This document shows, one piece after another, positions 6,175 through 31,349 of a stretch of DNA of 64,000 nucleotides. The DNA is taken from the NCBI GenBank assembly GCA_963750165.1, contig CAVVPN010000011.1, positions 2,240,001-2,304,000 on the forward strand. The letters are read 5' to 3'. The notes below the pieces were generated by a model. It had not been told where the DNA came from and did not search any database. It worked only from the letters and a program-made list of their open reading frames with translations. Within the stretch, counting starts at the first letter, position 1; every line of letters starts with the position of its first letter. The stretch is from an uncultured Gemmataceae bacterium (GTDB lineage Bacteria; Planctomycetota; Planctomycetia; Gemmatales; Gemmataceae). The position numbers and the translations under genes were made by a program.

Positions 6175-6175
6175 G

Positions 6176-10812: not shown

Positions 10813-10815
10813 CGC

Positions 10816-10926: not shown

Positions 10927-10948
10927 ACGACTTCGCAAGGAGAAGCCT

Positions 10949-11781: not shown

Positions 11782-11823
11782 AGCGTACCACGCCAGCCCA
11801 GGCCGTCATCGAGGTGTTCGCCA

Positions 11824-12027: not shown

Positions 12028-12284
12028 TCCATCAGACTGCCATCGCGCTTGTCGCAGGCACCGATTACAACCGCGTCGAGATCGGCCGGGCCGCCGCCAT
12101 CGTCGAGCGCACGGGCTGCAGCCCGCAGAGCGCGCTGGCCACGTCGCGGCAGCAGCTGCGTTCCGAGGTGGCGTTCGACCAACCCGTCAGCGTCCGCGAG
12201 CGCGACCAGGCCCTCGCGTACATGCGGCAGCATGCGACCGAGGACTTCGACGCGGCGGTCCAAGCGGTGCGTCGGCTCAACTGA
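12024..12284 (+). CDS. Small protein sharing its C-terminus with the protease/scaffold
   Basis: VRERDQALAYMRQHATEDFDAAVQAVR versus VRERDAAIAYMRKHETEDFDAALAEVR (end of 18180-19385). Confidence 0.7.
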   Translation: MIHQTAIALVAGTDYNRVEIGRAAAIVERTGCSPQSALATSRQQLRSEVAFDQPVSVRERDQALAYMRQHATEDFDAAVQAVRRLN

Positions 12285-12319
12285 ACCAACGCGGTGCTTG
12301 TAGACGGCACCGCTGCGGC

Positions 12320-12352
12320 GGGCGGGGGTTTCGGCAAGGCCCCCGCCCTTTT
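12320..12352 (+). terminator. Intrinsic terminator
   Basis: GGGCGGGGG...CCCCCGCCC followed by TTTT. Confidence 0.55.
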
Positions 12353-12372
12353 CCCCTACTCCGTGGAGTCTT

Positions 12373-16000: not shown

Positions 16001-17182
16001 GCCGCTCTTACAGCCGCATCTCGGTGAGGACGGGCGGACGGCGGACCAGCTGGCGCAGGCGGCCGGGTTGCCGCCGGCCCTGGCCGAGCGGTCGCTGCAG
16101 TACCTGGAGAACCACGGGCGGGTGATGCCGGTGCGGGACGAAACGGGTGAGACGTACTACTACGGCAGCACGCCGGGGCAGGGGCAGCCGGCGATGAGCG
16201 AGCTGCAGCGGCGCCTGCTGGGGCTGTTCGAGTCGCCGCGCTACGAGGACGCCATTACCGATGTCCTCGCCGGGCACTCGGCCGAGGAGGCGCAGCGGGC
16301 CTTCCAGGGGCTGCGAGACGCCGGGCTGGTTCAGGAGCTGGACAACGGCACGCACTGGACGAACGGGGCCGGCAGCGCGGCACTGCAGGCGGCGGGGGGC
16401 AAGCCGGCGGTTGCGGCTCAGGGCAGTGGCGGGGAACAACCCGGTGCGGCGGCGGACGGCGGCGCGGGGGCGACTCAGGCGACGGCGCCGGCCTACACCG
16501 GCCACCGCGAATTCATGGCGCGGTGGTCCGACCCAAAGCACCGGGCCACGGCGTCCGCGTCCGCCCAGGATCTGGCCAACCTGAAGACGTTTCTCGGCCG
16601 CGAGCCGCGGCCGCACGAACTGGCGGGCATGACCTGCGCGCGGCGGGGGCGGACGCGAAGGTGGAAGCCTACGGCGGCGCCATGAGTTCCCTGGTCGATC
16701 ACGAGGGGGTGGAGGCATGCCGCGGCTACGGCCGCCACCCGGACGGCAGCCTGGTCTGCCACAACGACATCTTCTACATCCACAAGAATTCGCCGCACAA
16801 GGGTCAGGGCTACCAGTTCACCGCCCGCCAGGTCGCCGCGCTCTGCGCCCTGGGTTTCCATAAAATCATGATGGGGTCGGCGGTCGGCCGCAAGGGAGCG
16901 AATTCGAACGGCTACTATACCTGGCCGCTGTTCGGCTTTGGCGGCAGGATGCATGACTACCAGTACAGCGAGCTCGCCCCGGAGTTCCAGAAGGCCCTGG
17001 GCAAGAGCCGGGAAATCCTCGACCTGTTCGAGTTGCCCGGCGGCCCCGAGGAGTGGAAGGAGAAGGGCAGCGGCCTGAGCAACCTGGAGTTTGATTTATC
17101 GGACGGCAGCCGCAGCATGCGGCGGCTGGAGGCGTACATCCGCGAGCGCGAGTCGCGACCGGCACAAGGAGCAGCCCCATGA
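13038..17182 (+). CDS. Large polyvalent phage protein (glycosylase-like central domain, C-terminal GNAT-like domain), frameshift near 16640
   Basis: GWY...LFAGLLATQS...N...KTSNF...VTNDVWM domain; after the shift, HKGQGYQFTARQV...LGF...NGYYTWPLFGF. Confidence 0.6.
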
Positions 17183-17367
17183 GCATCGGCGAACGGATCA
17201 AGGAGTGCAGGCGTTACCAGGACGAGATTCGTCAGCTGCAGGAACAGCTGGAGCAGCGGTTCCGGGAGACCGGGGCGGTGGACGCCGAGCTGCAAGGGCG
17301 ACTGGACGCGCTGACCGGGGAGGCGGCCCAGGCCGGCTGCCTGGAAGAGGGCGATGGCGACGTTTGA
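17179..17367 (+). CDS. Hypothetical protein
   Basis: AAGGAG RBS, overlaps the previous stop, helical composition. Confidence 0.55.
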   Translation: MSIGERIKECRRYQDEIRQLQEQLEQRFRETGAVDAELQGRLDALTGEAAQAGCLEEGDGDV

Positions 17368-17461
17368 GCAATTCGCCCTTGAACATCGCGCCGGGCCGTG
17401 TTTCACTGCAGCATCACCCGGCGACCGCACCCCATTCCCCGAGGCCAAGATCGTGAACAAC

Positions 17462-18075
17462 ATGAACGGCACCCTGAATCAAGGCAGCCCCATTTTCAAG
17501 GCCCTCGAAGCGCCCGAATGCAAGGAGCACTTCGGCCACAAGATCGCGTCGCGCGCGGCGCCAAAGCGCTGGATCGCAACAAGGAAAGCATCACGGACGA
17601 ATACATCGCGTCCTACTTGAGGCGGCACCCCGGCCTGACCGTTGACGATCTGGTGTTGTGTCACGGCGTCACGCACCTCACACCCACGACGCTGTGCCAG
17701 ATATTCTGGCTGGAGCCCAGGACCAAGGCCCTCGCCTTCGGCACCATTCAGGAGCGGCTGCAGCGAGAACTGCAGGACGCCCGCGATGCCTGCCAGGCCG
17801 TTCGCGCGGCGGTGCCCGAGGAGTTCCGCCAGGACGGCGTCAAGCTGGACGAGATGGTCTGCGCCATGGCCGCGCGCATCGACCGCCTGACCCTGCAGCT
17901 GGAGGCCGGCCGGCAACTGGAGTCCCAGGCGGACGCCCCGCAGGTGGCACCCGCGACCGATGGCATGCAGCCCACGCACCAGTTCGTCCGCCGCATCGAG
18001 ACGGTCGAGACCACGACGGTCTACGCCCACGAGGACGCAGCGGACCCCGAGGTGCTCATCGCCGTTCACGCCTGA
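17462..18075 (+). CDS. Hypothetical phage protein, probable frameshift near 17560
   Basis: The N-terminal piece MNGTLNQGSPIFKALE appears to join the ITDEYIASYLRRHPGLTVDDLVLCH frame. Confidence 0.45.
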
Positions 18076-18179
18076 GCCGCCCGCGGGCCGGGGCGCACCC
18101 AGCGCGGCCCCGGCCCGTTTTCTTTCACTTCTTTTTTTTCTCCATCCCCCGGAACGCGCGAATCCCGTCTCATGTGGTC

Positions 18180-19385
18180 ATGGCGACCGCGACCGCCGAC
18201 CCCACCCGCAACCTGATCGACCGGCTGGCGGATGCGTCCCAGTGGCACATCATCCGCGGCGTGCCGGTCTTCGACGTGCACGTGCGGTCGGATGGCGGCA
18301 CCGAACCGGTCCGGGTCGGCGCCGACGAACTGGAGCGCATCGTCGCCCGCGCCAGGTTCCGCCGCGAGCACAAGCGGGTGGTCCCGGTCATCCAGATCGG
18401 GCACACCCGGCCGAAGGAGCCGGAGCCGAACCAGCCGGACATCGTGGGGTTCGCCGACCACTGGCGGGAGGGAACGTTCGATGGGAAACCGTGCCTCCTA
18501 GTAGACGAGTTCTACGAGAAGGCCGAGGTGCCCCAGTTGTTCCACCCGGACGGCCGCGCCAAATATCCGTTCCGCTCGGTCGAGTACGACCCGCGGCGGC
18601 ACGAGGTCACCCGACTGGCCGTCCTGAAGCGCGACCCCGAACGCGATCTGGGCCTGGTCTATGGCCGCTGCGGCGGCGTGGTGTTCTACTCTCGGAGCCA
18701 AGACATGCCCCTTGCCGACCCGACGATGCAGCCCCAGGCCAACCCCATGCCGGCCCCCGCGCCGGCCGACGAGCACCCGGTCCTCAAGTACCACCGCAAG
18801 CTCGAGCGCTTCATGAAAAAGTGCTACGAGCGCGACCCGCACGCCTTCGACGACTTCGACGGCGAGGACAAGGATGGAGAGGACAAGGACAAGCCGGCGG
18901 AACTGCCGCCGCCGGACGAGGGTCGCGACAAGGACAAGCCGGGCGAGCCATATCAGCGGGGCACGCTCTCCTTCGAGATGGCCCAGCTCCGCCGCCAGGT
19001 AACCGACCTGGCCCGCGACCGCGACGAGTCGCGGCAGCTGTACGCCCGCAGCGAGGGTATGCGGCGGGTCCAGGAGTTGCAGACCGAGGGCTACGTCTTC
19101 AAGGATCCCGCCAAGAAGGCCGGCGAGTTCGCGGCCCTGGCGACGGACGCCGCCCGCGACGCGCTCGCCGACGACATCCGCGTCCATTACCAGCGCGACG
19201 ACAAGGCGCCGACCGGCGGCAGCTTCCTGAATCTGACGACGCCCCCGGGCAACCCCGGCGGCCGCAGCACCGACCCGGACGCCATCACCGTCCGCGAGCG
19301 CGATGCCGCGATCGCGTACATGCGGAAGCATGAAACCGAGGACTTCGACGCGGCGCTGGCCGAGGTCCGCAAGCAGTCCAAGTGA
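18180..19385 (+). CDS. Prohead protease/scaffold protein (Mu gpI-like)
   Basis: VIQIGHT, DIVGFA, YPFRSVEY N-terminal domain; acidic/coiled-coil C-terminal half; upstream of the capsid gene. Confidence 0.7.
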   Translation: MATATADPTRNLIDRLADASQWHIIRGVPVFDVHVRSDGGTEPVRVGADELERIVARARFRREHKRVVPVIQIGHTRPKEPEPNQPDIVGFADHWREGTFDGKPCLLVDEFYEKAEVPQLFHPDGRAKYPFRSVEYDPRRHEVTRLAVLKRDPERDLGLVYGRCGGVVFYSRSQDMPLADPTMQPQANPMPAPAPADEHPVLKYHRKLERFMKKCYERDPHAFDDFDGEDKDGEDKDKPAELPPPDEGRDKDKPGEPYQRGTLSFEMAQLRRQVTDLARDRDESRQLYARSEGMRRVQELQTEGYVFKDPAKKAGEFAALATDAARDALADDIRVHYQRDDKAPTGGSFLNLTTPPGNPGGRSTDPDAITVRERDAAIAYMRKHETEDFDAALAEVRKQSK

Positions 19386-19418
19386 ACCGCGGCCGACGAC
19401 ACCCCAGGGGCCTTTAGC

Positions 19419-20096
19419 ATGAGCAACTACGCCGAGTACGTCATCGGCCGCCGCGGCTACGGCAAGCTGACGCAGACCGCGGGCACCGTCATCAGCCGGC
19501 TGATCGAGCCACGCAAGAACGCCTGGACGCGGATTACCGGCGTGCTGACCACGACCGCCGCCACGGCGCACCTGCTGACGCTGCTGCGGCCCCTGGGCCG
19601 CACGACGTTCAGCGCCGTGGCGGCGGCCGGGCAGGCCGTGGTCACGCTCACTGCCGACCCGGGCGCCTACCCCAGCGGCGTGCGGACGGCGGCCGACGCC
19701 ATTACTTCGGGCGACTACGTCGTCTACGAGGCGGCAGACGGCACGCTGGTGCAGGACACCGCTGCGGGTACCTGGAACAGCACGACGGGCGCGTTGACGC
19801 TGAACACCTTCCTGCCGACGGGCGGCGTCCTGGTGGGCGGGCGGTTCTGGTACTTCGGGCTGGCCACGGACACCAACCCCAACGACGCCCAGGCGCACCC
19901 GCGCTGGAACCTCCTGGCCAACACCAGCAATTTCTTCGGCCGCGCCGACGGCATGGGCAGCATCCCGGACAACCCGCTCATGAATCTGGGCAAGGGCGAG
20001 GAGCAGCCGCTGCTGCTGCAGATCGACAACGGCAGCAACGCCAGCACCCTGGAGTCGGTCGGCGTCGAATACGTCAAGAAGGCGGCCGCGGGCTAG
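19419..20096 (+). CDS. Putative virion structural protein
   Basis: Thr/Ala/Gly-rich, beta-type composition, in the head module. Confidence 0.6.
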   Translation: MSNYAEYVIGRRGYGKLTQTAGTVISRLIEPRKNAWTRITGVLTTTAATAHLLTLLRPLGRTTFSAVAAAGQAVVTLTADPGAYPSGVRTAADAITSGDYVVYEAADGTLVQDTAAGTWNSTTGALTLNTFLPTGGVLVGGRFWYFGLATDTNPNDAQAHPRWNLLANTSNFFGRADGMGSIPDNPLMNLGKGEEQPLLLQIDNGSNASTLESVGVEYVKKAAAG

Positions 20097-20143
20097 GGCC
20101 AGGGCGTCGAGGGCGGGGGCGGCACGGCGAGCGGAGGCGAGAC

Positions 20144-20350
20144 ATGCAGCGGATTCCTGGGCACCTGACCGACAACAGCGCCGGCACCGCCAGCGCCACG
20201 GCGATTGCGGCCCTGAGCGACGGCAGCACCTACGCCAACGACGTGGCCGCGATCCGCAACAACCTGGCGACCATCGCCGCCACGCTGAACAGTCTGATCG
20301 ACCTGACCAAGGCGCTGGCCCGGCGGGTCGGCGAGTTGGAAGGGCAGTAA
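20144..20350 (+). CDS. Small head-fibre/decoration-like protein
   Basis: LTDNSAGTAS...IRNNLATIAATLN; GGAGG RBS. Confidence 0.5.
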   Translation: MQRIPGHLTDNSAGTASATAIAALSDGSTYANDVAAIRNNLATIAATLNSLIDLTKALARRVGELEGQ

Positions 20351-20384
20351 CCGCGGCACGCCACAGCAACCCGGGGGATGAATC

Positions 20385-20808
20385 GTGGAAGGCACGTATT
20401 TCAAGCCAAGTGCGGGCGGCCAGGCCGCGGGCACCATCTATCCGGCGCGCTTCGTCAAGCCGGGCAGCGACGAGGGCCTGATCCTCATGGCTGGCTCGGG
20501 CGATTTGCCCAGCGGCATCAGTTTCAATGAGACGCGGCGCTGCCAGCTGGTCGATAACACGGCTTCGCCGGGCATCCTGGCCAACACGGGCGAGCCGCTG
20601 AGTTACTACACCCAGGGCGCCCGCTGTCAGCCTGCAGCTGGGCGGCACCGTGAGCGCTGGCAACCTCCTGAAGCCGAACACGAACGGCGACGGCACCGGC
20701 ATCGCCACCACGGCCGACGGCGACGCCTACGGCGCCCGCGCCCTGCGCAACGGCACCAGCGGGGACATCATCCCCGTGGAAGTCTTGGTCGGCGAACGCG
20801 GCGCGTAG
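20385..20808 (+). CDS. Capsid decoration/cement protein (DUF2190-like), frameshift near 20627
   Basis: AAGTIYPARFVK...; shifted frame LQLGGTVSAGNLL...YGARALRNGTSGDIIPVEV, stop at 20808. Confidence 0.6.
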
Positions 20809-20879
20809 TCCACACATGGCCCGCCGAGTGCTTCGAGCGCTCGCCAGGAATGCCGCCGCGAGGCGGGGCGGGTCTCCAT

Positions 20880-20951
20880 CCCGGGGAGGAGCCGCGGAGG
20901 CTCGCCAGGCTCATAACCTGGAGGCGGTCGGTTCAACTCCGACCCCCGGCA
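20880..20951 (+). tRNA. Element-encoded tRNA-Met(CAT), initiator-like
   Basis: CCCGGGG/CCCCGGC with 1:72 mismatch; GAGCC..GGCTC D arm; CCAGG-CTCATAA-CCTGG; GTCGG-TTCAACT-CCGAC. Confidence 0.8.
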
Positions 20952-21148
20952 CTGACTCCCCCGGCTGCTTCGGCGGCCGGGCGCGGGGACGCAGGGAGGC
21001 GTCCTTAGCTCACCAAGGGATCGTGCGGCGCGTCCGCGCGGTCAATGAACGGGCCGGCCGGGAGTAGCTACCCGGCGAGACGGCCAAACACGTTGCGACC
21101 CGTTTGGGGGCCGCGCGGACGATCCGCGGTCCCACGAGGTCAACGGCC

Positions 21149-22234
21149 ATGCCGTTCGTCTACACCGGTCAGTTCAACGCCTACGTCCCCAAGGCCACCG
21201 GCCAGGTAGTCGCCTACGCCCGCAACCCGAAAAAGTACAAGCTCAACCGCTACACGCAGCTGGTGCCGGCGCCGGAGGACTTGTTCCTCTACTACCTGAT
21301 CCATCCGGACGACTTCGTCACGCACTACAACCAGACCGCCGCCATCTGGCAGGACGGCCAGTTGCGGCCGATGAAGTCCGGTCAGCGCATCCGCCACGAC
21401 CAGGTGCAGGGCCAGTGCGTCCGCTATGACTACGACTTCCAGATCGGCTGGAAGACGCTCAAGAGCGCGGACTACAACGTGCTCATGGCCAACACCAAGT
21501 CGGCCGAAAACGAGGCCATGATCGCCTGGACCGAGGAGGCCATCGCCCTGATCGAGGATGCGGCCAACTGGAACGGCAACACCGCCGACGCCGCGGACCT
21601 CGACGGCGGCGCCACCTGGGACGCCGGCACGCCGGAGAATCCCGTCATCAAGAAGACGCTGGGGGCGCTGGCCGAGCAGATTAGCCTGGGCACCAATGGC
21701 ATCGTCGGCGACTTCGAGAACCCCGAGGACGTGGGCCTCATCCTGCTCCTGGCCCCGGGCGCCGCCCGCCGCATGGCGGTGACGCCGGAAATCCACGCGA
21801 TTTACAAGGAGTCGCTGTACGCCGACGCCCTGGTGACGCGGCAGAGCGCCAACCCGAACGCCGTCTGGCAACTGCCGGCCCGGCTCTACGGCTTCACCGT
21901 CGTCGTCGAGAACGCGGTGCAGGTGAGCACGTCCCCCGTGGCCGCGGCCACGGCGGCGGCCACGACCGGCAGCCCGGCGCCGCGGTCGTTCCTCAAGAGC
22001 TACACGAGCGCGGCGATCCTCAGCCGTGTCGGCGGCATCGACGGCGAGATCGCCGCGCCCAACTTCTCGACGGTGCAGCGCTATTACACCGGCACCGAAA
22101 TGGCCGTCAAAATTTTCGACGAACCCAAGCACGAGTTGACCGACGGTCACGTGGAGCGCTGCGGCACCACCAAGCTGGCGGCGCCGGCGTCGGGGTTCCT
22201 CATCACCAACATCTTCCGGCCAGGCGTCGGCTAA
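21149..22234 (+). CDS. Major capsid protein
   Basis: 361 aa; follows scaffold and decoration genes; LPARLYGFTVVV motif and C-terminal GFLITNI typical of HK97-fold capsids. Confidence 0.7.
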   Translation: MPFVYTGQFNAYVPKATGQVVAYARNPKKYKLNRYTQLVPAPEDLFLYYLIHPDDFVTHYNQTAAIWQDGQLRPMKSGQRIRHDQVQGQCVRYDYDFQIGWKTLKSADYNVLMANTKSAENEAMIAWTEEAIALIEDAANWNGNTADAADLDGGATWDAGTPENPVIKKTLGALAEQISLGTNGIVGDFENPEDVGLILLLAPGAARRMAVTPEIHAIYKESLYADALVTRQSANPNAVWQLPARLYGFTVVVENAVQVSTSPVAAATAAATTGSPAPRSFLKSYTSAAILSRVGGIDGEIAAPNFSTVQRYYTGTEMAVKIFDEPKHELTDGHVERCGTTKLAAPASGFLITNIFRPGVG

Positions 22235-22267
22235 CCCGGGCGACGGCTGACACAGAGGGTCCGATTC

Positions 22268-23065
22268 ATGGAAACCGCCGCGCTGATGAAGGGGCACGTC
22301 CACCGGCTGTTGCCGATCCCGGCCGCCGAGGACCAGGGCAAGAGCGCGCGTTTCGGCCGCTACGGCGAGCCGTGCGTGCAGTCGATGGTTCGCAAGGCGC
22401 ACCCGCTGGCCGACGAGGGCAGCTACTTCCTGTGCAACAACGCGCAGACGGCCATCACCGCCGTGGCCGCCACGGCGTTCGCGGCGACGACGCCGCTGCT
22501 CATCGTCACCAACACCGACGTGCCCACCAACCCGAACGCCAAGAGCATCTACCTGGACTTCCTGTCCCTGCTCAACGGCAGCACGGCGTTCTCGAACAGC
22601 ACCAGCAACATCGGCATGTTCTGGGCCAGTTACCTCGACCAGCTGGCCCGCTACTCCTCGGGCGGCAGCAACCTGTCGGCCAACATCGTCAGCCCGAACA
22701 GCGGCGTCGCCAACCCGACCTCGGTGGCCAAGGTCTACCTGGGCAGCCTGACGGCGGCGGCGGCCGGCCCCAACGTCCGCTGCCTGATCGGCCAGCGGCT
22801 GTTCCGCGCCCCGGTCACCGCCACGGCCATGTCGCTGGCGTACCTCGACGACTGGCACTACGAGTTCGGCAGCGTGGAATCCCCGCCGGCGGGCACGCCG
22901 GGCACCTCGGGCACCGTCAACGCCAACGCCCTGCACAGCGTCTTCAAGCACCCGCCCGTGGTGATCGGCCCGGGGCACAGCTTCCTGCTCTACCTGTGGA
23001 TGGCGGCCAACAGCGGCCAGACCGGCGGCACCCTCTTGCCCGATCTGGGCTGGTGGGAGCGCTGA
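22268..23065 (+). CDS. Putative virion structural protein
   Basis: Long ORF with phage-like codon usage between the capsid and adaptor genes. Confidence 0.6.
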   Translation: METAALMKGHVHRLLPIPAAEDQGKSARFGRYGEPCVQSMVRKAHPLADEGSYFLCNNAQTAITAVAATAFAATTPLLIVTNTDVPTNPNAKSIYLDFLSLLNGSTAFSNSTSNIGMFWASYLDQLARYSSGGSNLSANIVSPNSGVANPTSVAKVYLGSLTAAAAGPNVRCLIGQRLFRAPVTATAMSLAYLDDWHYEFGSVESPPAGTPGTSGTVNANALHSVFKHPPVVIGPGHSFLLYLWMAANSGQTGGTLLPDLGWWER

Positions 23066-23160
23066 GCGGCGGCCGGACAGTTGGGTTTTGCGAAACCGTG
23101 GCGGATTCCGGCGCCGATCGCGGCCGGAATCCGCCGTAGCAGCCCAGTCAAGGGGCGGCC

Positions 23161-23700
23161 ATGACGCAGACCGTCATCAGCGGAGCCAGCGCCTACTGCA
23201 CGCCGCAGCAGTTCCTGGACCGCTACGACCTGCGGACGGTCGGCCGGCTGCTCTCCGATGACGGTAAGAGCACGCTGAACCAGATGCAACTGCTGGCGAG
23301 TCCGATCCTGGCCTCCTTCCTCATGGAAGCCTCGGGCGAGGTCGAAACGGTGTGCCTGCAGGGAGGGCGGTACACCCCGGCGGACCTGGCCGCGCTGGCG
23401 GGGACCAACCACGGCATGACGCTGGCCGGCCTGGTCGCGGACCTGGCCATGTGGCGGCTGTGGCGGCGGCGGCCCAGCAAGGACGACAAGGCCCCGGCGT
23501 CCGTGGAGGATGCCCGGGATCTGCTCCAGCGGCTGGGCGACGGCGAAGCCATCTTTGGCTTCCAGGAGACGGCCGACGCGGGCGTGCTGCACGCCGGGCG
23601 GCGGCACCAGCGCGACGAGACCTTGCTGCCGCCTCGCTACTATGGCCGCGGTTGGGATAGCGACCGCGGCTATGGCTTTGGCAGTGGCGTGGGCGACTGA
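23161..23700 (+). CDS. Head-tail adaptor, Mu gp36/DUF1320-like
   Basis: AYCTPQQF...EASGEV...GRY...LVADLAMWRLWRRR...EDARDLLQRLGDG. Confidence 0.75.
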   Translation: MTQTVISGASAYCTPQQFLDRYDLRTVGRLLSDDGKSTLNQMQLLASPILASFLMEASGEVETVCLQGGRYTPADLAALAGTNHGMTLAGLVADLAMWRLWRRRPSKDDKAPASVEDARDLLQRLGDGEAIFGFQETADAGVLHAGRRHQRDETLLPPRYYGRGWDSDRGYGFGSGVGD

Positions 23701-23711
23701 GGGCCACGACG

Positions 23712-24299
23712 ATGACGCTACAGGTCGGCATCCCCAACCCGCTCTCCACCGGCGCCGTGGCCATCTACGTTGGCACCGGCAAACACAACGCGCCGGCCCT
23801 GCTCGGCACCGGCCGCACGGCGCCCCGCTACCTGATCGAGCGGGCCTGGATTCCCTTCTTCAATGATCTGGGCGGCTCGGCGATGCCCTTTGACGAGCTG
23901 TACGCGGGCACGCGGGCGCTCGTCTCGGTGGACCTCAACTGGCTCGACCTCAAAGTGCTCAAGGTGGCGCAGGCCGTCCCCGGTTCCGTCAGCCAGCAGA
24001 CCGGCTTTCAGGCGCTGCTCGACCAGGGTTCGTTCATGGTCGCCGAGAACCTGGCGTCCCCGCTCTGGCTCAGGTTCCTCAACTACAACAAGCCGGCGTT
24101 TCGGGCGCTCGGCCTCGCCCCTGGCATCCGCTTCCCCTACAGCTGGCTGCTCGGCCCCGACCGCCACGAGCCGGGCACGCAGTCGCTGAATATCAACCTC
24201 ATCTGGCGCTGCCAGCGCGGCTTCGTGCCGGCGCTCGGCGGCTTCCTGTTCGCGGACAACGACATGACCGGACTGCCGCCCTTCCCCGGCCTGAAGTGA
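23712..24299 (+). CDS. Putative tail tube protein
   Basis: Size and position between the adaptor and the frameshifted chaperone pair. Confidence 0.45.
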   Translation: MTLQVGIPNPLSTGAVAIYVGTGKHNAPALLGTGRTAPRYLIERAWIPFFNDLGGSAMPFDELYAGTRALVSVDLNWLDLKVLKVAQAVPGSVSQQTGFQALLDQGSFMVAENLASPLWLRFLNYNKPAFRALGLAPGIRFPYSWLLGPDRHEPGTQSLNINLIWRCQRGFVPALGGFLFADNDMTGLPPFPGLK

Positions 24300-24306
24300 G
24301 CACCCC

Positions 24307-24926
24307 ATGAGTCAGCGCGGCCCCAACGACGTGTTCGGACCCTACGAGTGCGGCCAGGGCCCGGTCTACGGCGATCCCTTCCGCCTCTACCGCGGCTTCG
24401 TCCACGGTTTAGGCGGCGAGCCGGGCCGTGTCCTGCGCGGCTGCCGGAGCGCCGACGAGACCGAGCGCTTCGAGTGCGTCGAGCGGTTGGTCGCCACGAC
24501 CCGCGAGGTGTTTGGCCTGGTGCCGTTCGACCCGGCGGACGGCTCGGGCGTCCTGGACCGCGAGGCGGTCGAGTTGGCCCGGCAGTTCCTGCTCTGGGTC
24601 GAGGGTGTAAAAAAAAATGGCGTGACGCCGCCGACCTCGCCGCCAATTACGGAGTTGGCGTCCTGCCCGGACCCTTGGGTCACGCCGGACGCTTCGGTCT
24701 GTGGCTGAACCTGCCCCGGCAGCGGGCGCGGCACGCCTGGGCCGGCAAGGAGGCCATCGAGTTGGCGATGGGTCGGGGCAGGGTGCCGCGGCTGTACTTT
24801 GAGGCGGTGTGCGCCACCGAGGCCCAGGCCGAGGAACTGGCCTTCCGGGTCAACACGGCGCGGAAGGAAAAAGAGGCGCTGGCCTCCCTCAAGGGCGGCC
24901 CGGCGGCGTGGCAAGGGGCTTGGTAG
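24307..24926 (+). CDS. Tail assembly chaperone pair (G: 24307-24708; GT via -1 frameshift to 24926)
   Basis: A9 run at 24609-24617 (V-K-K-N); the -1 frame stays open to 24926. Confidence 0.6.
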
Positions 24927-25859
24927 ATGGCGGCCGACAAGGAAGCGCTGTTGCAGATGGCGGCGGCGCTGGCCGACGAGGCGGCGGGCATGGCCGACGC
25001 CGTGGACCGCACCGCCGGGTTCGGCCAGGTCGAGATGCCGGCAATGGCGGACGAGGCGGGCGGTCTGGCGCCCCTGGACTGGCCGCAGAGTGCAGACGGC
25101 GCCGAAGGCGAGGCCGGGGGTGACGGTCAGGACCCGTTCGCGCCGCCGGACTTCGCGGGACTGGGCGGGGCGCTGGAGCCGGGCGGCATGCCCGCGGCCG
25201 GCGTGGCGCCGGGAGAGGTACCGCAGGTGCCGGCGACGGGGTTGGATGCCGCGGGCGACTTCGCGCCGCCGGTGACTGCGGGCGACGGACCCTTCGAGGT
25301 GCCGCCGTTGCCGGGGGCGGTGCCGGAGTTGCCGCCGCCCGAGTTGCCGCAGAGCGTGCCGGCCACCGTGAACTACTACCCCAACGAACCGCAGGTCGAG
25401 GCGCCGCCGCCGGCGGCCGGGCCGGACCAGGATCCGTTCCGCTTCAGCCAGTGGACCGAGCAGGACGGCGGCATCGTCTTTGAGAATGGCCCCGGTGCGG
25501 CCCCAGAGCGCGGCGGCCCGCAACCCTCGGAGTTGCCCGAGCAGGCGGCCGACGAGCCGGACAAGGCGCCGCTGGGGGGCGTCCTGGGCGATGTCTTCGG
25601 GTTGCTCCAGAGCATCCAGGAGGGGATTCAGGCGCTGGCGGGTGGGGGCAGCCAAGGGAGAGGGGCCAACGGCCTCAACTTGCCCACGGGGCCGCAAGGG
25701 CTGCCCTGGTCTGGGATACCTCCGGCGTCCTTGCCCGAGGCCAGCGAGAGCTACGCCGCGGCGTCGCCGGGGATCTTCGACGCGACCACCACGGCCGGCG
25801 CCGGGGGGCTGGCGGCTACGGTGCCGGCAGCCGGCCAAACGTGCCGACTATCGACGTGA
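24927..25859 (+). CDS. Acidic Pro/Gly/Ala-rich protein at the tape-measure position
   Basis: Starts immediately after the GT stop; low complexity. Confidence 0.55.
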   Translation: MAADKEALLQMAAALADEAAGMADAVDRTAGFGQVEMPAMADEAGGLAPLDWPQSADGAEGEAGGDGQDPFAPPDFAGLGGALEPGGMPAAGVAPGEVPQVPATGLDAAGDFAPPVTAGDGPFEVPPLPGAVPELPPPELPQSVPATVNYYPNEPQVEAPPPAAGPDQDPFRFSQWTEQDGGIVFENGPGAAPERGGPQPSELPEQAADEPDKAPLGGVLGDVFGLLQSIQEGIQALAGGGSQGRGANGLNLPTGPQGLPWSGIPPASLPEASESYAAASPGIFDATTTAGAGGLAATVPAAGQTCRLST

Positions 25860-25899
25860 CCGAACCTTCCAAGCGGCTGGCTTCGCACGGGTGATACCG

Positions 25900-27693
25900 A
25901 TGGCGACCTGGGCGTTCTACAACGGCGTGTACATGGACCGCGCCCGCTGCCACGTGCAAAGGCAGCAGGTGGTCAGCAACGGCTTCTACGTCCGCACCGA
26001 CGTGACGCTGCGCGTCCGCGGGGTCTACAACCCCGCCTACATCAGCTACTATCTGAACAAGCTGCCCGCGCAGGCGAAGGCGGCGGCATTGGCGGGGCAG
26101 GCGGTCGGCAACCTCGCCGCCGGCCTGGCCGCCAACGCCGCGCCCCCAGGCTTCAACCCCCTCGCCCTGGCGAACGCCGCCGCCGGGCTGGCCCAGGCGG
26201 GCAGTGTGCCGCGGCCGGCCCCGCGCCAGGCGCCGGGCGTGCCCGCCCCGCAGACCGACAATGCCATCCGCTACGTGCTCAGCCAACCGCGCAAGCGCCT
26301 CGTCTTCGGCTGCGGACCCGACATCCTGTACGACATCCCCCGGCCGCCGAACACCACGGACGTGAACAACGGGCCGACGCCCGTGCGTATCGACGTGGTG
26401 GAGGTCGAGGGCTACAAGACCTTCCACATCGACTTCATCATCACCTTCGCTGTTAACGAGGTGGACGCCACCAATCGCGGCCAGCGGCGTACCATCGACA
26501 ACAGGGGGAAGCCGGTCAACGTCACCGTCGCCAATTCGCCCTACCGGGTCAGCCCGCTGCTGCTGCACGAGTGGTCGATGGAGCACGACATCGACCAGGA
26601 CTTCTTCGTCACCCGCACGGTGACGGGTCGCGCCGTCTTTCGCACGGACGTGCTGACGCGCGAGGGGCTCGTCCCCGATCAGCTGCGTTACTGGCTGGGG
26701 CACCCGGTGCCGGAAAGGTTCGCCCGCCAGCGTGTCTGGGTCAAGGCGCTGCCGGACAACCGCACGGTCGAGTACACCATCCTCGACCGCGAGCGGACAA
26801 TCCCGTGGGACCCAAACCAGGCCACCCGCGTCGAGTGCGTGTACACGGAAAGCATCAACCACGAGGGGCTGGAATCGTTTCTGGGGCGGCAGAGTTGGTC
26901 GTACCGGGACCGTCAGGACCGATTGCGCTTTGATACCAGTTGGTCGGGCGGCTTCGCCGCCTCGGGGTTCGTGCTTGGGCTGCAGGCGGCGCCGATGCTC
27001 TGGAATGGAATTCGCAATTTGTTTCCCAATGCAGGACTCCCGGCCATGCCAGGCGCCACCGCGCTGGCCGGTGTGCCGGTGAAGAACTATCATATCGTCG
27101 GCCGCGCCTGGGGCCACCCGGGCAAGGATTTGGGCCTCCTCGCCAACTACGTCCGCCGCTTCGTCGGCACCCGGCTGGTCAACCCGCTGGCACCGCCAGG
27201 CGCCATCCTGCCGCAGCGCTTCCCTGGGTTCAACCCCATCCGGGGCATTATGCTGGGCAGCGAGGTGTACGAGCACCGCGCGGACCTGACCGGCAAGTTC
27301 GTCGAGTTCAGCATGACCATGACCGGCTCGCTACTCCGCTCCCTCGCTGGAGACATCGGCTTCGCGAACGCCCAGCCGGGCGCGTTCGATGAGGCCCCGG
27401 GACGGCCCGGCCCACCGGAGAACCGCCCCATCCTGGCGCACCCCATGCGCGGCGTGTACCTGGGGGCGGCCGTGGCGCGGGCGCTGCGGGACACGGAAAC
27501 GCCCTGGACGCCCCCGACCGACCCGCCGAACGTGCTGGAGGTGAACAACCCGCGGCCGGTGGGTTCCAACAACCGGCTCAACGCCGACCCGCAGCAGATT
27601 TGGAACGGCGATCAGGGGCAGTTCGATCTGGTCAGAAACGATGTCGCGGCGGGGGTCAACAACAACGCGGCCGATGCCGTGCAGGCCCCGTGA
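25900..27693 (+). CDS. Putative tail/baseplate protein
   Basis: MATWAFYNG...DVNNGP...TRTVTG, in the tail module. Confidence 0.55.
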   Translation: MATWAFYNGVYMDRARCHVQRQQVVSNGFYVRTDVTLRVRGVYNPAYISYYLNKLPAQAKAAALAGQAVGNLAAGLAANAAPPGFNPLALANAAAGLAQAGSVPRPAPRQAPGVPAPQTDNAIRYVLSQPRKRLVFGCGPDILYDIPRPPNTTDVNNGPTPVRIDVVEVEGYKTFHIDFIITFAVNEVDATNRGQRRTIDNRGKPVNVTVANSPYRVSPLLLHEWSMEHDIDQDFFVTRTVTGRAVFRTDVLTREGLVPDQLRYWLGHPVPERFARQRVWVKALPDNRTVEYTILDRERTIPWDPNQATRVECVYTESINHEGLESFLGRQSWSYRDRQDRLRFDTSWSGGFAASGFVLGLQAAPMLWNGIRNLFPNAGLPAMPGATALAGVPVKNYHIVGRAWGHPGKDLGLLANYVRRFVGTRLVNPLAPPGAILPQRFPGFNPIRGIMLGSEVYEHRADLTGKFVEFSMTMTGSLLRSLAGDIGFANAQPGAFDEAPGRPGPPENRPILAHPMRGVYLGAAVARALRDTETPWTPPTDPPNVLEVNNPRPVGSNNRLNADPQQIWNGDQGQFDLVRNDVAAGVNNNAADAVQAP

Positions 27694-27701
27694 GGTGAGT
27701 C

Positions 27702-28238
27702 ATGGCCACGAGTCCCGTTTTGTACAAGCTGCCGGCCAAGACCCCGCGCTTCAACTTCGACTACGGGGTAGGCGGCTACGTCCGCAACCAGCTGGCCAGC
27801 GAGTACCTGTTCAACACGGGCAAGATTGTGGTGCCCGTCATGGGCGATCCGAATTACCCCGCGACGGAGGACACCACGGTATCCGTGCAGGTGTGCAGCC
27901 CCTATGGCTTCAAGGTGGTGTCGTTCCATCTGGGCCGCGTCGGCATCAAGCCGCGGCTGCCGTCGCCGCAGTCCAACGACCCGAACCTGGAGTTCCTGGG
28001 CGGCCGGCTGTGGCTGCCCGCGCCGGTCATCCTCAACGACCTGGTGACCTACGTGTACGAAGCGGCCGGCGTCTACTACTACCGCTGCCTGAAACCCGTC
28101 TGGACCGCCGAGGGGTTCACGCTCGGCGCCTCGACGGTGGACCGCACTCCGGGCGCTGCGAACATGCTGGGCGGCCCCGCCGACGCGAACCGCTTCTTCC
28201 CCATCGACGCCACCGACGTACAGCAGAAGCAGGCATAG
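27702..28238 (+). CDS. Putative tail protein
   Basis: GAGGTG RBS; last gene of the structural run. Confidence 0.55.
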   Translation: MATSPVLYKLPAKTPRFNFDYGVGGYVRNQLASEYLFNTGKIVVPVMGDPNYPATEDTTVSVQVCSPYGFKVVSFHLGRVGIKPRLPSPQSNDPNLEFLGGRLWLPAPVILNDLVTYVYEAAGVYYYRCLKPVWTAEGFTLGASTVDRTPGAANMLGGPADANRFFPIDATDVQQKQA

Positions 28239-28258
28239 GTGGGCATCGCGCCGAAGCC

Positions 28259-28837
28259 TTACTGAGAAGGCCGGGCGAATACCTGGCAGAAATAGATGGT
28301 ATCGCCGTTGCCATCCCCCGGTTGCCCCGGGGCGATGGCGACACCGATGCCGGTTTCGGTCCAGTCGCCGCCGAAGGCAATCGGAATGAGGCCGAACTCC
28401 CAGCGCCGCTTTACCACATGGGCGGCGCTCGGCCGGGCTATGTCGGCCCGGTCGAATGCGACATCGTAGAGCGCCGCCACCTTGCCAGCGTAGCCCGCCT
28501 CCTTGGCCCGCTGCTCTGCCTTCTTACCGTCCGCGGGCAGCCCAAAACCCTTCGCTTTGGCCATCTGATCGGCGTGCAGCTGCGCGATCGCGTCCAGCTT
28601 GGCGATCCGCTTCAGTGGCAACACATCGGGCAGAGGCGGCTCTCCGATTTCCTTGCGAACCTGATTGGCGTTCGGCAGCCGCTCCTTCCGATACCACTCC
28701 CGCGCCTTGTTGTGCAGGGCGAAGAGTTCGTCCCCGAGCTTCTTCAGGTCCAGTGGCTTCTTGTCCTGGGCGGCCGGGCCGGTGCCGGGCAACACCGCCG
28801 CCAGCACCGCCACCGCCGTCAACGTCATTACGCGCAT
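28259..28837 (-). CDS. Secreted CAP/SCP domain protein (cargo)
   Basis: Signal peptide; LHNKAR, LDAIAQLHADQMA, ETGIGVA, YFCQVFA. Confidence 0.75.
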   Translation of the reverse strand: MRVMTLTAVAVLAAVLPGTGPAAQDKKPLDLKKLGDELFALHNKAREWYRKERLPNANQVRKEIGEPPLPDVLPLKRIAKLDAIAQLHADQMAKAKGFGLPADGKKAEQRAKEAGYAGKVAALYDVAFDRADIARPSAAHVVKRRWEFGLIPIAFGGDWTETGIGVAIAPGQPGDGNGDTIYFCQVFARPSQ

Positions 28838-28889
28838 GGGTGACCCTCCTTTCCTGCCATTAGAACGGCAAGCCGGGGGCTTGTCAACT

Positions 28890-29144
28890 TCACGCTTTTC
28901 GCGGCCGGCCGCGCTTCGCCGGGGCGGCAGCCGGCGATGGGGCCTTCGTGAACGCCAGGACCGTCACCCCCAGCGCCCGCGCCAGCGCCAGCGCGCTCGA
29001 CCAGCTAGGATCGGTCAGGTTCTGTTCGTAGTGCGAGACGGCACGCTGGCTGATGCCGGCCTTCTCCGCCAGTTCCTTCTGCGTCAGGCCGGCTCTCTCG
29101 CGCAATTCCTTGAGCCGTCCGCTGAAAATCTCCGCATCGGTCAC
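28890..29144 (-). CDS. XRE-family HTH repressor
   Basis: RLKELRERAGLTQKELAEKAGISQRAVSHYEQN..DPS. Confidence 0.9.
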   Translation of the reverse strand: MTDAEIFSGRLKELRERAGLTQKELAEKAGISQRAVSHYEQNLTDPSWSSALALARALGVTVLAFTKAPSPAAAPAKRGRPRKA

Positions 29145-29165
29145 CGGAACACCCCCGCCAGAAAA

Positions 29166-29208
29166 TACCAAAATTTGGCTTGACGCCATAGCCAGACTTT
29201 GGTATTAT
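29166..29208 (+). promoter_or_regulatory. Sigma70 promoter overlapped by two inverted operators
   Basis: TTGACG (29180)-N17-TATTAT (29203); TACCAAAATTTGGCT and AGCCAGACTTTGGTA are 13/15 inverted copies. Confidence 0.65.
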
Positions 29209-29295
29209 ACCTTCGTCGCCTGGAAAAACAAGTTGGGCCGGCGAGTGCTACTAACACCCCCGGCCCGTGGCAAACCCCGAGTGACCGAGGTTCAC

Positions 29296-29652
29296 ATGAA
29301 CAGCGTAGCATCCCCCGTCCGTGCCGAGAAGGCCAACACGTCCGCCCGCACCGTCCGCCTGAGCACCAGCGCTCACGGCCACAAGCTCCTGACCATCACG
29401 GAGCGCAAGGGCCGCCAGACGCTCACCACCGCGTACCACCTGGAGCAGATCGACGCCGGCATGGGCCGCCGCGGCTTCCGTCTCTCCAAGGTCGAGCGCT
29501 CCAGCGGCACCGACAAGTCCCCCGAGGCCGACGCCTATCACGTCCTGACCGCACCCGAGGGAACCGCCTGCGAGTGCCGCGGGTTCCTTCGTCACGGGCA
29601 CTGCAAGCACTGCGAGAGTCTGGTTGCCCTGGAGCGGGCCGGCAAGCTCTAG
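29296..29652 (+). CDS. SWIM zinc-finger protein
   Basis: CECRGFLRHGHCKH. Confidence 0.75.
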   Translation: MNSVASPVRAEKANTSARTVRLSTSAHGHKLLTITERKGRQTLTTAYHLEQIDAGMGRRGFRLSKVERSSGTDKSPEADAYHVLTAPEGTACECRGFLRHGHCKHCESLVALERAGKL

Positions 29653-29742
29653 AGCCATCTGGTTGATGGGGTGCCGCGGGCCAGGGGCGTGTGCCCCGCC
29701 GCGGCGCCTTTTTCCTCGCCCCCGAACACGGAGAACATCCCG

Positions 29743-29967
29743 ATGACTATCGATACCACGACCACCCGCGGCCTACTGCTGCCCTGCCCCCTGTGCGGGG
29801 AGGCCGAGGCGCAGGTGCTGCTCGACCTGTCGGACATGGACACCTGCCACTGCGACAGCTGCGACACCGACTTCTCGCTGACCGACCTGGCCGGCCGGAT
29901 CGCCAAGTGGCATCGCCTGCTCACCTGGGTCGAGGCCGCCCCGGGCGCGGAAGGCGGTGCGTCTTGA
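29743..29967 (+). CDS. Zinc-ribbon protein
   Basis: CPLCG...CDSC. Confidence 0.65.
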   Translation: MTIDTTTTRGLLLPCPLCGEAEAQVLLDLSDMDTCHCDSCDTDFSLTDLAGRIAKWHRLLTWVEAAPGAEGGAS

Positions 29968-30043
29968 AACCCACCTGGCGGATGTTAGAATCCACCTTGA
30001 AAATTCCAGGCCCCGAAACCTCTTGTTTCGAGGAGACGGTTCG

Positions 30044-30418
30044 ATGCTCACCGCGCGCCGCGTGCCCGTCAACCGCGTTCAGGCACTGCTGAAACTGGCC
30101 CGCCAGGTCCTCGACGAACAACACGGCCCCGACCCCGGCCCGGTCAGCGTCGTTATCGTCCGGGGCCAACTGGTCACCGTCAGCAGCGACCAGGCCGCCG
30201 AACAAGCCGTCATCGCCGCGGCACCGACGGCCGCGAACGTCGGCCCGCTACAGCGGCGCATCCTGCAGGCCCTGACAGCTTCCCCGCAGACCGCGCGACG
30301 GCTGGCCAGTTCGGTGAGGCACCGTTGCAATAGCTACTTTTACGAGCAGCTGCGACTGCTTGTGGACGCCGACCCACAACTGATCCGCCGCGTGTCCTGG
30401 GGCTACCGGCTGCCGTGA
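30044..30418 (+). CDS. Winged-HTH-like protein
   Basis: GAGGAG RBS; LQRRILQALTASPQTARRLA...GYRL. Confidence 0.55.
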   Translation: MLTARRVPVNRVQALLKLARQVLDEQHGPDPGPVSVVIVRGQLVTVSSDQAAEQAVIAAAPTAANVGPLQRRILQALTASPQTARRLASSVRHRCNSYFYEQLRLLVDADPQLIRRVSWGYRLP

Positions 30419-30461
30419 AGGTGGCAGGCAGCATGGAAACGGCCCTTCCGCCCAGAAAGAA

Positions 30462-30490
30462 AGGCCCCGGCCGTTCACTGGTCGGGGCCT
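30462..30490. terminator. Hairpin near the right end of the element
   Basis: AGGCCCCGGCC...GGTCGGGGCCT, preceded by an A-rich tract. Confidence 0.45.
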
Positions 30491-30532
30491 GATGCGAGAC
30501 TTGTGAAATATTGGAGAAAGTGCCTTCTCCTG

Positions 30533-30552
30533 CTCCCAGGAGCGTCGCTTCT
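30533..30552 (-). tRNA. tRNA-Trp 5' fragment at the right att site
   Basis: AGAAGCG-AC-GCTCCTGGGAG; AGAAGCG pairs with CGCTTCT at 6333-6339. Confidence 0.8.
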
Positions 30553-30560: not shown

Positions 30561-30635
30561 GGGTGTCCGGGGGGAATTGAACCCACCACCGCGACATTCA
30601 CAGTGTCGCATGCCGGCCATTACAACACGAACACC
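30561..30635 (-). tRNA. tRNA-His(GTG)
   Basis: CGACA-CTGTGAA-TGTCG; discriminator C. Confidence 0.8.
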
Positions 30636-30645
30636 ATCAATCCAG

Positions 30646-30715
30646 TTGCAGGCTCCGGTAACGATCCGGACGAGCCGGCCTTATGAGAGCCAGCCGGACG
30701 CCTGTCACGCCTGCA
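30646..30715 (-). tRNA. tRNA-Met/Ile2(CAT), atypical
   Basis: TGCAGGC/GCCTGCA; loop CTCATAA; short D arm; T loop ATCGTTA. Confidence 0.65.
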
Positions 30716-30723
30716 CCAGCAGA

Positions 30724-30800
30724 ATCAGCAGGAGGAGTCGAACCTCTTGGCAGTAGTTTTGCAGACCACCGGGGCACCATGTCCCTTCAGCCACTGCTGA
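30724..30800 (-). tRNA. tRNA-Cys(GCA)
   Basis: TCAGCAG/CTGCTGA; GTGGT-CTGCAAA-ACTAC; TTCGACT. Confidence 0.75.
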
Positions 30801-30808
30801 CGTTCCAG

Positions 30809-30892
30809 CGGAAAGGGAGGGAGTCGAACCCTCAAGGCTCATCGCTCAACCGTTTTCGGGACGGTCGCCATCGCCGATTGGCTTGCCTTTCC
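30809..30892 (-). tRNA. tRNA-Ser(CGA)
   Basis: GGAAAGG/CCTTTCC; ACCGT-CCCGAAA-ACGGT; long variable arm. Confidence 0.85.
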
Positions 30893-30903
30893 GTTTCACC
30901 CAG

Positions 30904-30975
30904 TTGGGGAGGTGGGAATCGAACCCACTTGCTCCAGCTCCCAAGGCTGGCGGACCGCCATTGTCCCACACCCCA
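30904..30975 (-). tRNA. tRNA-Pro(TGG)
   Basis: CCAGC-CTTGGGA-GCTGG; GTGGG-TTCGATT-CCCAC. Confidence 0.85.
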
Positions 30976-30992
30976 ATGTCACGCGCACGCAG

Positions 30993-31064
30993 TAGGGGCA
31001 GTTGGAATCGAACCAACACCTTCCTGTTTAAGAGACAGGTATGCCGCCGCTACACCATACCCCC
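30993..31064 (-). tRNA. tRNA-Lys(CTT)
   Basis: CCTGT-CTCTTAA-ACAGG; GTTGG-TTCGATT-CCAAC. Confidence 0.85.
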
Positions 31065-31088: not shown

Positions 31089-31120
31089 AAAAAAGGCCGG
31101 GTGTCTGGTGACACCCGGCC
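31089..31120 (-). terminator. Intrinsic terminator (attenuator) just upstream of the tRNA array
   Basis: GGCCGGGTGTC-ACCA-GACACCCGGCC-TTTTTT. Confidence 0.8.
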
Positions 31121-31150
31121 CACACGCTGCTCGCGTGGAGTCCCGCAATG

Positions 31151-31240
31151 TCACAACCGTAAGTTGCACCGGCACGGCGCCATCGACGTGGGTTTATGCC
31201 ACGAATGGGGCTGCATCAAGTTAGTCCGTGCGGTCAACAT
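31151..31240 (-). CDS. Putative leader peptide MLTARTNLMQPHSWHKPTSMAPCRCNLRL
   Basis: GAGGA RBS a few nt upstream of the ATG; stop lies 30 nt before the terminator. Confidence 0.65.
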   Translation of the reverse strand: MLTARTNLMQPHSWHKPTSMAPCRCNLRL

Positions 31241-31349
31241 GGGTTCCTCAATTCGTCTCAGGATTAGCGTCTCACGTAGTAGTAGACGCGGCCACCCGGG
31301 AACTGGTTCGCCAGGAAAACGAAATTATTTGCCAGACTTGCGCGACAAT

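Follow-up and report, generated by a model that had tools for sequence, protein, structure and literature searches.

A conserved leader ORF as a probable codon-matched attenuator of a spare tRNA array in Gemmataceae

Introduction

On the minus strand of a Gemmataceae genome, a block of tRNA genes is preceded by a short ORF and an intrinsic terminator, and the locus raises the question of whether the ORF decides if the tRNAs are transcribed and whether its codons are chosen for that purpose. The window analyzed here is a stretch of 64,000 nucleotides from an uncultured Gemmataceae bacterium, to which all coordinates without a locus or contig name refer (Table 1). A first-pass annotation of this window had read the ORF as a leader peptide whose codons match the nine tRNAs behind it. 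Leader-peptide attenuation is known for amino-acid operons; a literature search, with most subscription papers outside its reach, found no paper on attenuation of tRNA genes.

Results

Leader and terminator of the studied locus

Direct reading placed the 29-codon ORF (31240-31151, minus strand) and its GAGGA (31249-31245) where the first-pass annotation had put them, and the encoded peptide MLTARTNLMQPHSWHKPTSMAPCRCNLRL, which has no match in a Pfam search, contains all nine amino acids of the uninterrupted array. The Shine-Dalgarno-like word is found in only 32 of 89 related leaders. The codon claims of that annotation hold as well, namely that Arg is CGG three times, Ser is TCG twice, the core Thr is ACG, and Lys is AAA, a codon that the array tRNA-Lys(CUU) does not read under simple wobble. 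Its list of mismatches was correct for Lys and otherwise incomplete, having missed that two of the three Pro codons are CCC, unread by the array Pro-UGG under simple wobble. In a chance test on 16,692 ATG ORFs of 25-35 aa from the same genome, a 15-residue window with at least 14 matches was present in 665, all nine residues in 163 and both in 14, while the whole-leader fraction of 0.68 was equaled by 3,093. Taken alone, the studied locus matches its array only moderately beyond chance, and the match is regarded as non-random because of the family evidence, not because of the single locus.

The strand GTGACATT (31154-31147), which lies over the UGA stop, can pair with GGTGTCAC (31115-31108) in the 5' arm and loop of the terminator, and sequence and folds put both this pairing and the terminator at the places first reported. 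The 12-bp terminator stem (31121-31094) with its T6 has a z of -5.8, and 0/200 shuffles were as good. By folding, the studied antiterminator holds two G-U pairs and is weaker than in most relatives, with a probability of 0.87 when 7-9 nt of the terminator 3' arm are hidden, and of 0-0.48 versus a family median of 0.83-0.99 when 5 nt are hidden. The spacer gives no support for a conserved pause hairpin, whose z falls below -1.5 in only 40 of 141 leaders. No family was matched in an Rfam search of the leader region, and no T-box was matched at the studied locus at the gathering score or up to E=5. Each of 18 public read runs contained at most 0.07 of the locus words, and in three runs that were mapped, the reads fell solely on a repeat and on pieces of tRNAs from other strains, leaving the leader uncovered.

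Two kinds of repeats were also observed in the window. A long palindromic repeat (31344-31479), similar pieces of which are abundant in soil contigs, lies between a UPF0047 gene and the promoter, and a short intergenic palindromic family occurs at 4053-4100 and 1205-1261.

Table 1. Features of the putatively attenuated tRNA locus and of the prophage-like element that splits it
Feature	Position	Strand	Basis
Predicted promoter GCGAACC-N-CGTCT	31284..31311	-	motif scoring, 23.9 bits, third best in genome
Shine-Dalgarno-like GAGGA, 4 nt ahead of ATG	31245..31249	-	sequence
Leader ORF, 29 codons, MLTARTNLMQPHSWHKPTSMAPCRCNLRL*	31151..31240	-	sequence reading, translation
Antiterminator strand GTGACATT over UGA stop (partner 31115-31108)	31147..31154	-	sequence, folds
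Spacer hairpin, possible pause element	31123..31137	-	folding
GGTGTCAC, pairing partner in terminator 5' arm and loop	31108..31115	-	sequence
Intrinsic terminator, 12-bp stem, 4-nt loop, U6	31089..31121	-	hairpin scan, folding
tRNA-Lys(CUU)	30992..31064	-	ARAGORN, Rfam
tRNA-Pro(UGG)	30903..30975	-	ARAGORN, Rfam
tRNA-Ser(CGA)	30808..30892	-	ARAGORN, Rfam
tRNA-Cys(GCA), atypical D arm	30722..30801	-	ARAGORN
tRNA with CAU anticodon (Met or possibly Ile2), atypical	30645..30721	-	relaxed ARAGORN threshold only; conserved in L322
tRNA-His(GUG)	30561..30634	-	ARAGORN, Rfam
Original 5' piece of tRNA-Trp, ending in 11-bp attachment core (30543-30533)	30533..30552	-	junction comparison
14-bp arm, inverted copy of 6396-6409 (attP-like arms)	30510..30523	-	junction comparison
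Terminator-like hairpin at prophage end	30458..30490	-	folding, z -3.3, 1/200 shuffles
Prophage-like element, ~24 kb, inside tRNA-Trp	6394..30532		Pfam, PHROGs, junctions
HTH repressor	28890-29189		Pfam/PHROGs
Mu gp36-like adaptor	23161-23700		Pfam/PHROGs
D5-type primase	9232-10812		Pfam/PHROGs
Serine integrase in two reading frames	6494-7330, 7228-8085		Pfam/PHROGs
Prophage-borne promoter motif copy, directly ahead of the distal three tRNAs, leaderless	6410..6440	-	18.3 bits
Hybrid tRNA-Trp(CCA), phage-supplied 5' strand, one acceptor mismatch	6331..6403	-	ARAGORN, junctions
tRNA-Thr(CGU)	6252..6327	-	ARAGORN, Rfam
tRNA-Arg(CCG)	6175..6247	-	ARAGORN, Rfam

Relatives of the element

A first pattern run over the genome collection returned mostly noise, with 14 of 119 loci followed by an array of at least three tRNAs (39 of the 119 had short flanks only). 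A stop-plus-terminator pattern was then matched in 98 of 252 family genomes versus 16 genomes for the reversed control, and the family set consists of 80 of about 150 matches picked by eye for hairpin quality, together with 14 earlier loci and the two arrays of the studied genome itself. Records carrying the element are labeled Gemmataceae, Gemmatales, Planctomycetota or Pirellulales, with a single one labeled Alcaligenaceae. Of these 96 loci, 89, from 68 genomes, have a called leader; the seven misses comprise four loci without a tRNA after the hairpin and three without an ATG start. A second set, not picked by eye, was obtained with a stricter pattern and holds 87 metagenome loci, 69 of which have a called leader; a tRNA follows within 400 nt in 74 of the 77 motifs with enough downstream DNA, and behind the other three lie a degenerate tRNA-like sequence, an RNase P-like RNA and a protein gene. 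With a leader in 158 of 183 loci overall, the ORF proves to be conserved in homologous arrays, which the first-pass annotation had allowed it might not be.

In these loci, a promoter-like motif, the leader, an antiterminator strand overlapping the stop, a terminator and tRNAs follow one another in fixed order, and the arrays range from 9 genes at the studied locus and 18 on contig C10 of the same genome to as many as 35 in relatives. A looser, class-wide pattern was noisy outside the family among the matches listed, and of four matches fetched from another family, L395 alone was followed by an array, and its leader call is doubtful. Viral contigs gave 10 pattern matches, none with a terminator plus tRNA.

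Leader residues follow the array

After 19 arrays cut by a contig end or with fewer than 4 tRNAs were dropped, 70 complete arrays were left, in which 0.740 of the core leader residues belong to the array's own set versus 0.555 upon permutation (z 14.9, 0/20,000); in the 55 arrays whose set comprises no more than 14 amino acids, the fractions are 0.684 and 0.466. For these 55, no match was found in the other frames (+1, z 1.0; +2, z -1.8) or in a 5' UTR control (z 1.3). All 20 amino acids are commoner in the leader when their own tRNA is in the array, with frequencies of 0.042 versus 0.006 for Lys and 0.030 versus 0.007 for Trp, and little difference for His, Val and Arg. Moreover, every array amino acid occurs in the leader in 35 of the 55 arrays versus 6.4 expected. 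About one quarter of leader residues lie outside the called tRNA set, and some leaders match poorly; tRNA calls miss divergent genes.

With one leader per cluster, z is 10.6 (34 clusters) or 5.8 (13 clusters), and clustering at 33% identity collapses to 2 clusters. Pairs of arrays within a genome gave 13 wins, 3 losses and 2 ties, and disjoint pairs of related leaders with different arrays behaved as predicted in 33 of 41 cases at identity of at least 30% (5 against, 3 ties) and in 22 of 28 at identity of at least 40% (5 against). Kinship among leaders is reduced by the clustering and pair tests, and some of it remains. In the metagenome set, where 16 new complete arrays were left after removal of duplicates, leaders already seen and cut arrays, the fraction is 0.734 versus 0.595 permuted (z 5.8), and the other frames (n=14) gave z -1.0 and 1.3.

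These results bear on the alternative that a chance ORF stands ahead of an ordinary terminator in GC-rich DNA. The many short ORFs that reach the whole-leader fraction of the studied ORF speak for it, yet such an ORF would hardly recur as a leader in most loci of both sets, at a fixed spacing of 27-46 nt and with co-variation specific to one frame, and this explanation is scarcely credible.

Synonymous codons follow the isoacceptors

The choice among synonymous codons was examined by permuting isoacceptor sets among arrays sharing an amino acid, a test in which kinship is uncorrected. Read with wobble, 1196 codons are matched versus 1055 +/- 13 permuted, and read strictly, 776 versus 655 +/- 14, each with 0/3,000; strict matching is weak for Arg (z 0.8), Ala (z 0.2) and Pro (z 1.2). 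The co-variation by which the first-pass annotation proposed to check its reading is thus found at both the residue and the isoacceptor level. Against genome codon usage, strict matching is lower than expected (655 versus 748) and wobble matching higher (615 versus 543); because leaders are low in GC3 (0.62 versus 0.87), genome usage is a poor null for strict matching and was replaced by the isoacceptor permutation.

A second array in the same genome

The studied locus and an 18-tRNA array on contig C10 (G000:C10:90125-88560) carry the sole two such terminators of the genome; the second array has the same promoter motif and stop context and a near-identical terminator. Its leader, MRYSVISLVLEQQALQAVAAYQRKLLALDRLNL, has 31 of 32 residues after the start within its own array set. 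The tRNA sets of the two arrays are largely complementary, and the fraction of leader residues matched is 0.86 for the own set and 0.34 for the swapped one. Since the C10 array holds the only called Lys-UUU, Leu-UAA and Val-GAC of this 93% complete genome, it may not be silent. Two tandem promoter motifs were observed at this locus (L404, G000:C10:88300-90600). As well, the AAA codon of the studied leader is readable by the C10 Lys-UUU, a possible cross-link between the arrays.

Predicted switch and its dependence on the ribosome

The leader stop is UGA in 141 of 141 unique leaders and the next base is C in 139, which is partly imposed by the search patterns. The distance from stop to terminator keeps within 27-46 nt, and positions stop+1 to +6 are paired with the terminator 5' arm in 79-89 of 89 relatives; stop+4, a position free in the family pattern, co-varies with its partner (A-U 39, G-C 34, G-U 6). 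A T-rich terminator tail is present in 128 of 141 relatives.

Folds were computed for a state in which the last 9 nt of the stem are still inside the polymerase, with an assumed ribosome cover of 13 nt; a cover of up to 12 nt is given in PMC4833913, which also provides background on leader-peptide attenuation. In this state, the antiterminator is predicted in 87/89 relatives with the ribosome upstream and in 0/89 with the ribosome over the stop, and a scan of stall positions gave 0/89 at codons 0 to -3 and 86/89 at codon -4. The co-varying pairs and the stall scan both point to a predicted antiterminator that excludes the terminator and lies within the ribosome's reach. Full-length RNA folds as the terminator in 80/89, so the switch would rely on co-transcriptional kinetics. 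Without any ribosome, the antiterminator folds in 115-116 of 129 leaders, and the stop region pairs upstream as a protector (1:2) hairpin in only 3-5 of 129; therefore, loss of leader translation should also give read-through.

The excess of the composition match by codon is 0 at -1 and -2, +0.08 at -3 and +0.12 at -4, and mostly +0.2 to +0.3 further upstream, and this fade near the stop is in line with the boundary predicted at codon -4. The C-terminal P-L-R-L-UGAC is retained irrespective of the presence of the corresponding tRNAs in the array (Arg at -2 in 42/59 leaders with an Arg tRNA in the array versus 17/26 without), with Pro at -4 and Arg at -2 encoded by varied codons, and may hold the ribosome at the stop. 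Such retention suggests selection on the peptide end, as would be expected if the ORF encoded a functional or arrest peptide and the RNA were a plain terminator for it; yet the remainder of the peptide evolves quickly (85 non-synonymous versus 49 synonymous single changes in 15 leader pairs), no Pfam match was found, and the stop region co-varies with the terminator arm, which makes a peptide function very improbable.

A more serious alternative, which we nevertheless consider unlikely, is that the switch is real and senses general translation failure only (antibiotics, hibernation), in the manner of whiB7/wblC, with its composition a by-product. The read-through predicted for untranslated leaders, with no protector hairpin, and the C-terminus kept regardless of the array tRNAs are both compatible with it. 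Induction of the Anabaena array by translation inhibitors, as described in PMC8421152, speaks for it as well. A sensor of this kind, however, would have no use for residues specific to one array, whereas both the composition of the leader and the choice of isoacceptor codons track the array, and the studied genome has two leaders that differ as their arrays do.

Promoter motif

The motif GCGAACC-N-CGTCT, whose consensus was derived from the analyzed loci themselves, lies upstream of 84 of 89 leaders versus 3% in shuffles. It resembles the consensus of ECF sigma promoters. A sigma-70 scan found no minus-strand promoter near the leader. No promoter of the GCGAACC-N-CGTCT class was found in the 24 nt between the terminator and tRNA-Lys, where the first-pass annotation had named a promoter as evidence that would count against its reading. 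The letters of the motif are absent from the main text of PMC7826278. The genome has 22 matches scoring at least 18 bits versus 8 in the reversed control, so that single assignments are uncertain. Among them, the motif stands ahead of an archease-rtcB pair (L403, G000:C3:1266000-1269800, 20.1 bits), of several single tRNAs and of an ORF that we presume to be infC-like from its sequence. The archease and RtcB genes behind the motif hint at a regulon of tRNA repair and replacement, and the cognate sigma factor may not be stress-specific. As a separate observation, four tRNA clusters (L386, L389, L401, L027) carry the motif and have no leader or terminator.

The company of a tRNA-repair pair also matters for a further reading, in which the leader senses amino-acid starvation through uncharged tRNA, like the multivalent thr and ilv leaders, and the tRNAs serve a purpose other than replacement. 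A ribosome cannot tell an uncharged tRNA from a missing one, and the residue-level match is stronger than the codon-level match, as that reading would have it. Against this, the gated genes are tRNAs and not biosynthetic enzymes, synonymous codons follow the isoacceptors, and the promoter motif of the arrays recurs ahead of the archease-rtcB pair, so that a starvation sensor appears quite improbable.

A prophage splits the studied array

The claim of nine tRNAs behind the switch stood for Lys, Pro, Ser, Cys, Met and His and failed for Trp, Thr and Arg, which now lie at 6403-6175, beyond a prophage-like element. An 11-bp core was found by junction comparison, a direct-repeat scan having missed it: one copy (30543-30533) lies within the tRNA-Trp D arm and the other at 6393-6383, and the element contains 14-bp inverted arms. 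When the element is removed in silico, the nine tRNAs become contiguous and the Trp acceptor stem is perfect, while the hybrid tRNA-Trp of the lysogen has a mismatch there. In the metagenome locus L322, a direct orthologue, the run of Lys, Pro, Ser, Cys, Met, His, Trp and the first part of Thr is unbroken, and the leader there is near-identical to the studied one, with AAG as the Lys codon. Of the 18 relatives having both His and Trp, 9 carry Trp immediately after His.

Because the prophage splits tRNA-Trp and bears a promoter copy, the switch now precedes six tRNAs, and the other three are likely driven without a leader. The terminator-like hairpin at the prophage end would, by its fold, stop array read-through from entering the prophage. 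All nine array anticodons have 1-4 other copies elsewhere in the genome, as expected of a back-up set.

Further observations concern the element itself. A PHROG match was obtained for 5 of 15 prophage proteins, and most proteins of 6394-30532 have no Pfam or PHROG match. The prophage carries a tRNA-Met(CAU) of its own (20880-20952, plus strand), and the transcript start predicted from its promoter copy (6410-6440, minus strand) coincides roughly with the first base of the hybrid tRNA-Trp.

Variants among relatives

In some attenuated arrays (L310:168-347(+), L222, L363 and L400), a compact RNase P-like RNA of ~250 nt comes first, just past the terminator; that of L310 scores 33 bits against Rfam RF00010 (E 2.9e-8), which is below the gathering score of 100. 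The switch may thus gate a spare tRNA-processing ribozyme. At L326:2267-2328(+), the switch motif precedes a protein-coding gene instead of tRNAs. At another locus (L388, G023:C1:6680500-6684600), tRNAs for Glu, Asp, Leu, Met, Ser and Arg follow a longer leader in which those residues are abundant and a terminator of unrelated sequence; this arrangement is possibly an independent version of the device. In addition, L180, L183, L184 and L225 contain array tRNAs that are called as Ala and carry an AGC anticodon (A34), an unusual feature for bacteria.

Discussion

Proposed mechanism

The conserved leader is, with good confidence, a codon-matched attenuator of a spare tRNA array, which would be turned on when ribosomes slow on the array's own codons; this reading is built on sequence comparison and folding models. 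According to the folds, a ribosome at the UGA would cover the antiterminator strand, the terminator would form and the array would be off, whereas a ribosome with its A site at least 4 codons upstream, or no ribosome, would let the antiterminator pair with the terminator 5' arm and loop and give read-through. The trigger would presumably be the shortage, cleavage or under-charging of particular tRNAs, general translation arrest may be a second input, and an ECF-type sigma factor might provide a first layer of control. The newly made tRNAs would relieve the stall and thereby close a negative feedback loop. At the studied locus, the prophage in tRNA-Trp leaves six tRNAs behind the switch, and a leaderless prophage promoter likely drives Trp, Thr and Arg.

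A broader picture is offered more tentatively, at slightly under even chances. In it, the codon-level self-test of each array would be rewritten as tRNAs come or go, as part of a modular feedback system that senses the loss of single isoacceptors (e.g., to anticodon nucleases or toxins) and replaces the set, beside RtcB repair under the same sigma factor, and the prophage here would have taken Trp, Thr and Arg out of control until its excision.

As a leader lists the codons that it tests, more than 140 distinct natural leaders (141) may reveal which tRNAs the cell monitors as a group, and leaders can help to assign the identity of oddly shaped array tRNAs. The leader-terminator part is, moreover, a candidate portable sensor of tRNA shortage.

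Comparison with known systems

The leaders trpL, hisL and pheL and the multivalent thrL and ilvL are transcription attenuators of enterobacterial amino-acid operons. As in the trp and his leaders, a short leader with control codons is present here, the position of the ribosome is predicted to select the antiterminator or an intrinsic terminator, and the stop position is predicted to favor termination. Unlike in those operons, the gated genes are tRNAs and not genes for amino-acid biosynthesis or synthetases, the control codons cover 4 to 19 amino acids and are single or scattered instead of forming runs, and the leader composition changes with the array content; the product would itself be the sensed molecule. 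The trp/his geometry to which the first-pass annotation had likened the locus does not apply, as the protector hairpin is rarely predicted and the device is not of the four-segment type.

In Actinobacteria, the whiB7/wblC uORF attenuator gives read-through under translation stress when translation of the uORF is lost or slowed. A stalled or untranslated uORF would likewise give read-through here, judging from the folds, whereas the leader codons correspond to the tRNAs behind them, and non-coding RNA takes the place of a transcription factor gene as the target. T-box riboswitches bind uncharged tRNA directly, without translation; antitermination is set by tRNA status in both systems, and would proceed here through a translated leader, without a T-box match in Rfam. 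SPbeta in spsM and skin in sigK are gene-splitting serine-integrase prophages, and the element described here similarly interrupts a host gene and has a short core together with inverted arms. In contrast to them, its target is a tRNA in an attenuated array, to which it contributes an imperfect 5' strand as well as a promoter copy.

The studied array resembles the L-arrays (PMC8421152, PMC4758250), which are blocks of supernumerary tRNA genes, redundant with housekeeping copies and also reported in Planctomycetes; they can reach 43 genes in length and are spread by horizontal transfer. Neither paper uses the words leader, attenuat- or terminator in its main text. The trn operon of Anabaena is controlled by promoter-overlapping repeats and the repressor TrcR (PMC8421152, PMC10272220), and TrcR-type repeats over the promoter are described for cyanobacteria in PMC8421152. 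The studied array shares with L-arrays a redundant tRNA block and a link to rtcB and translation stress, and differs from the Anabaena operon in having 9 genes and a predicted attenuator. If the proposed reading is true, it provides a mechanism for switching on silent tRNA arrays outside cyanobacteria, in which the product of the genes is the very molecule that is sensed.
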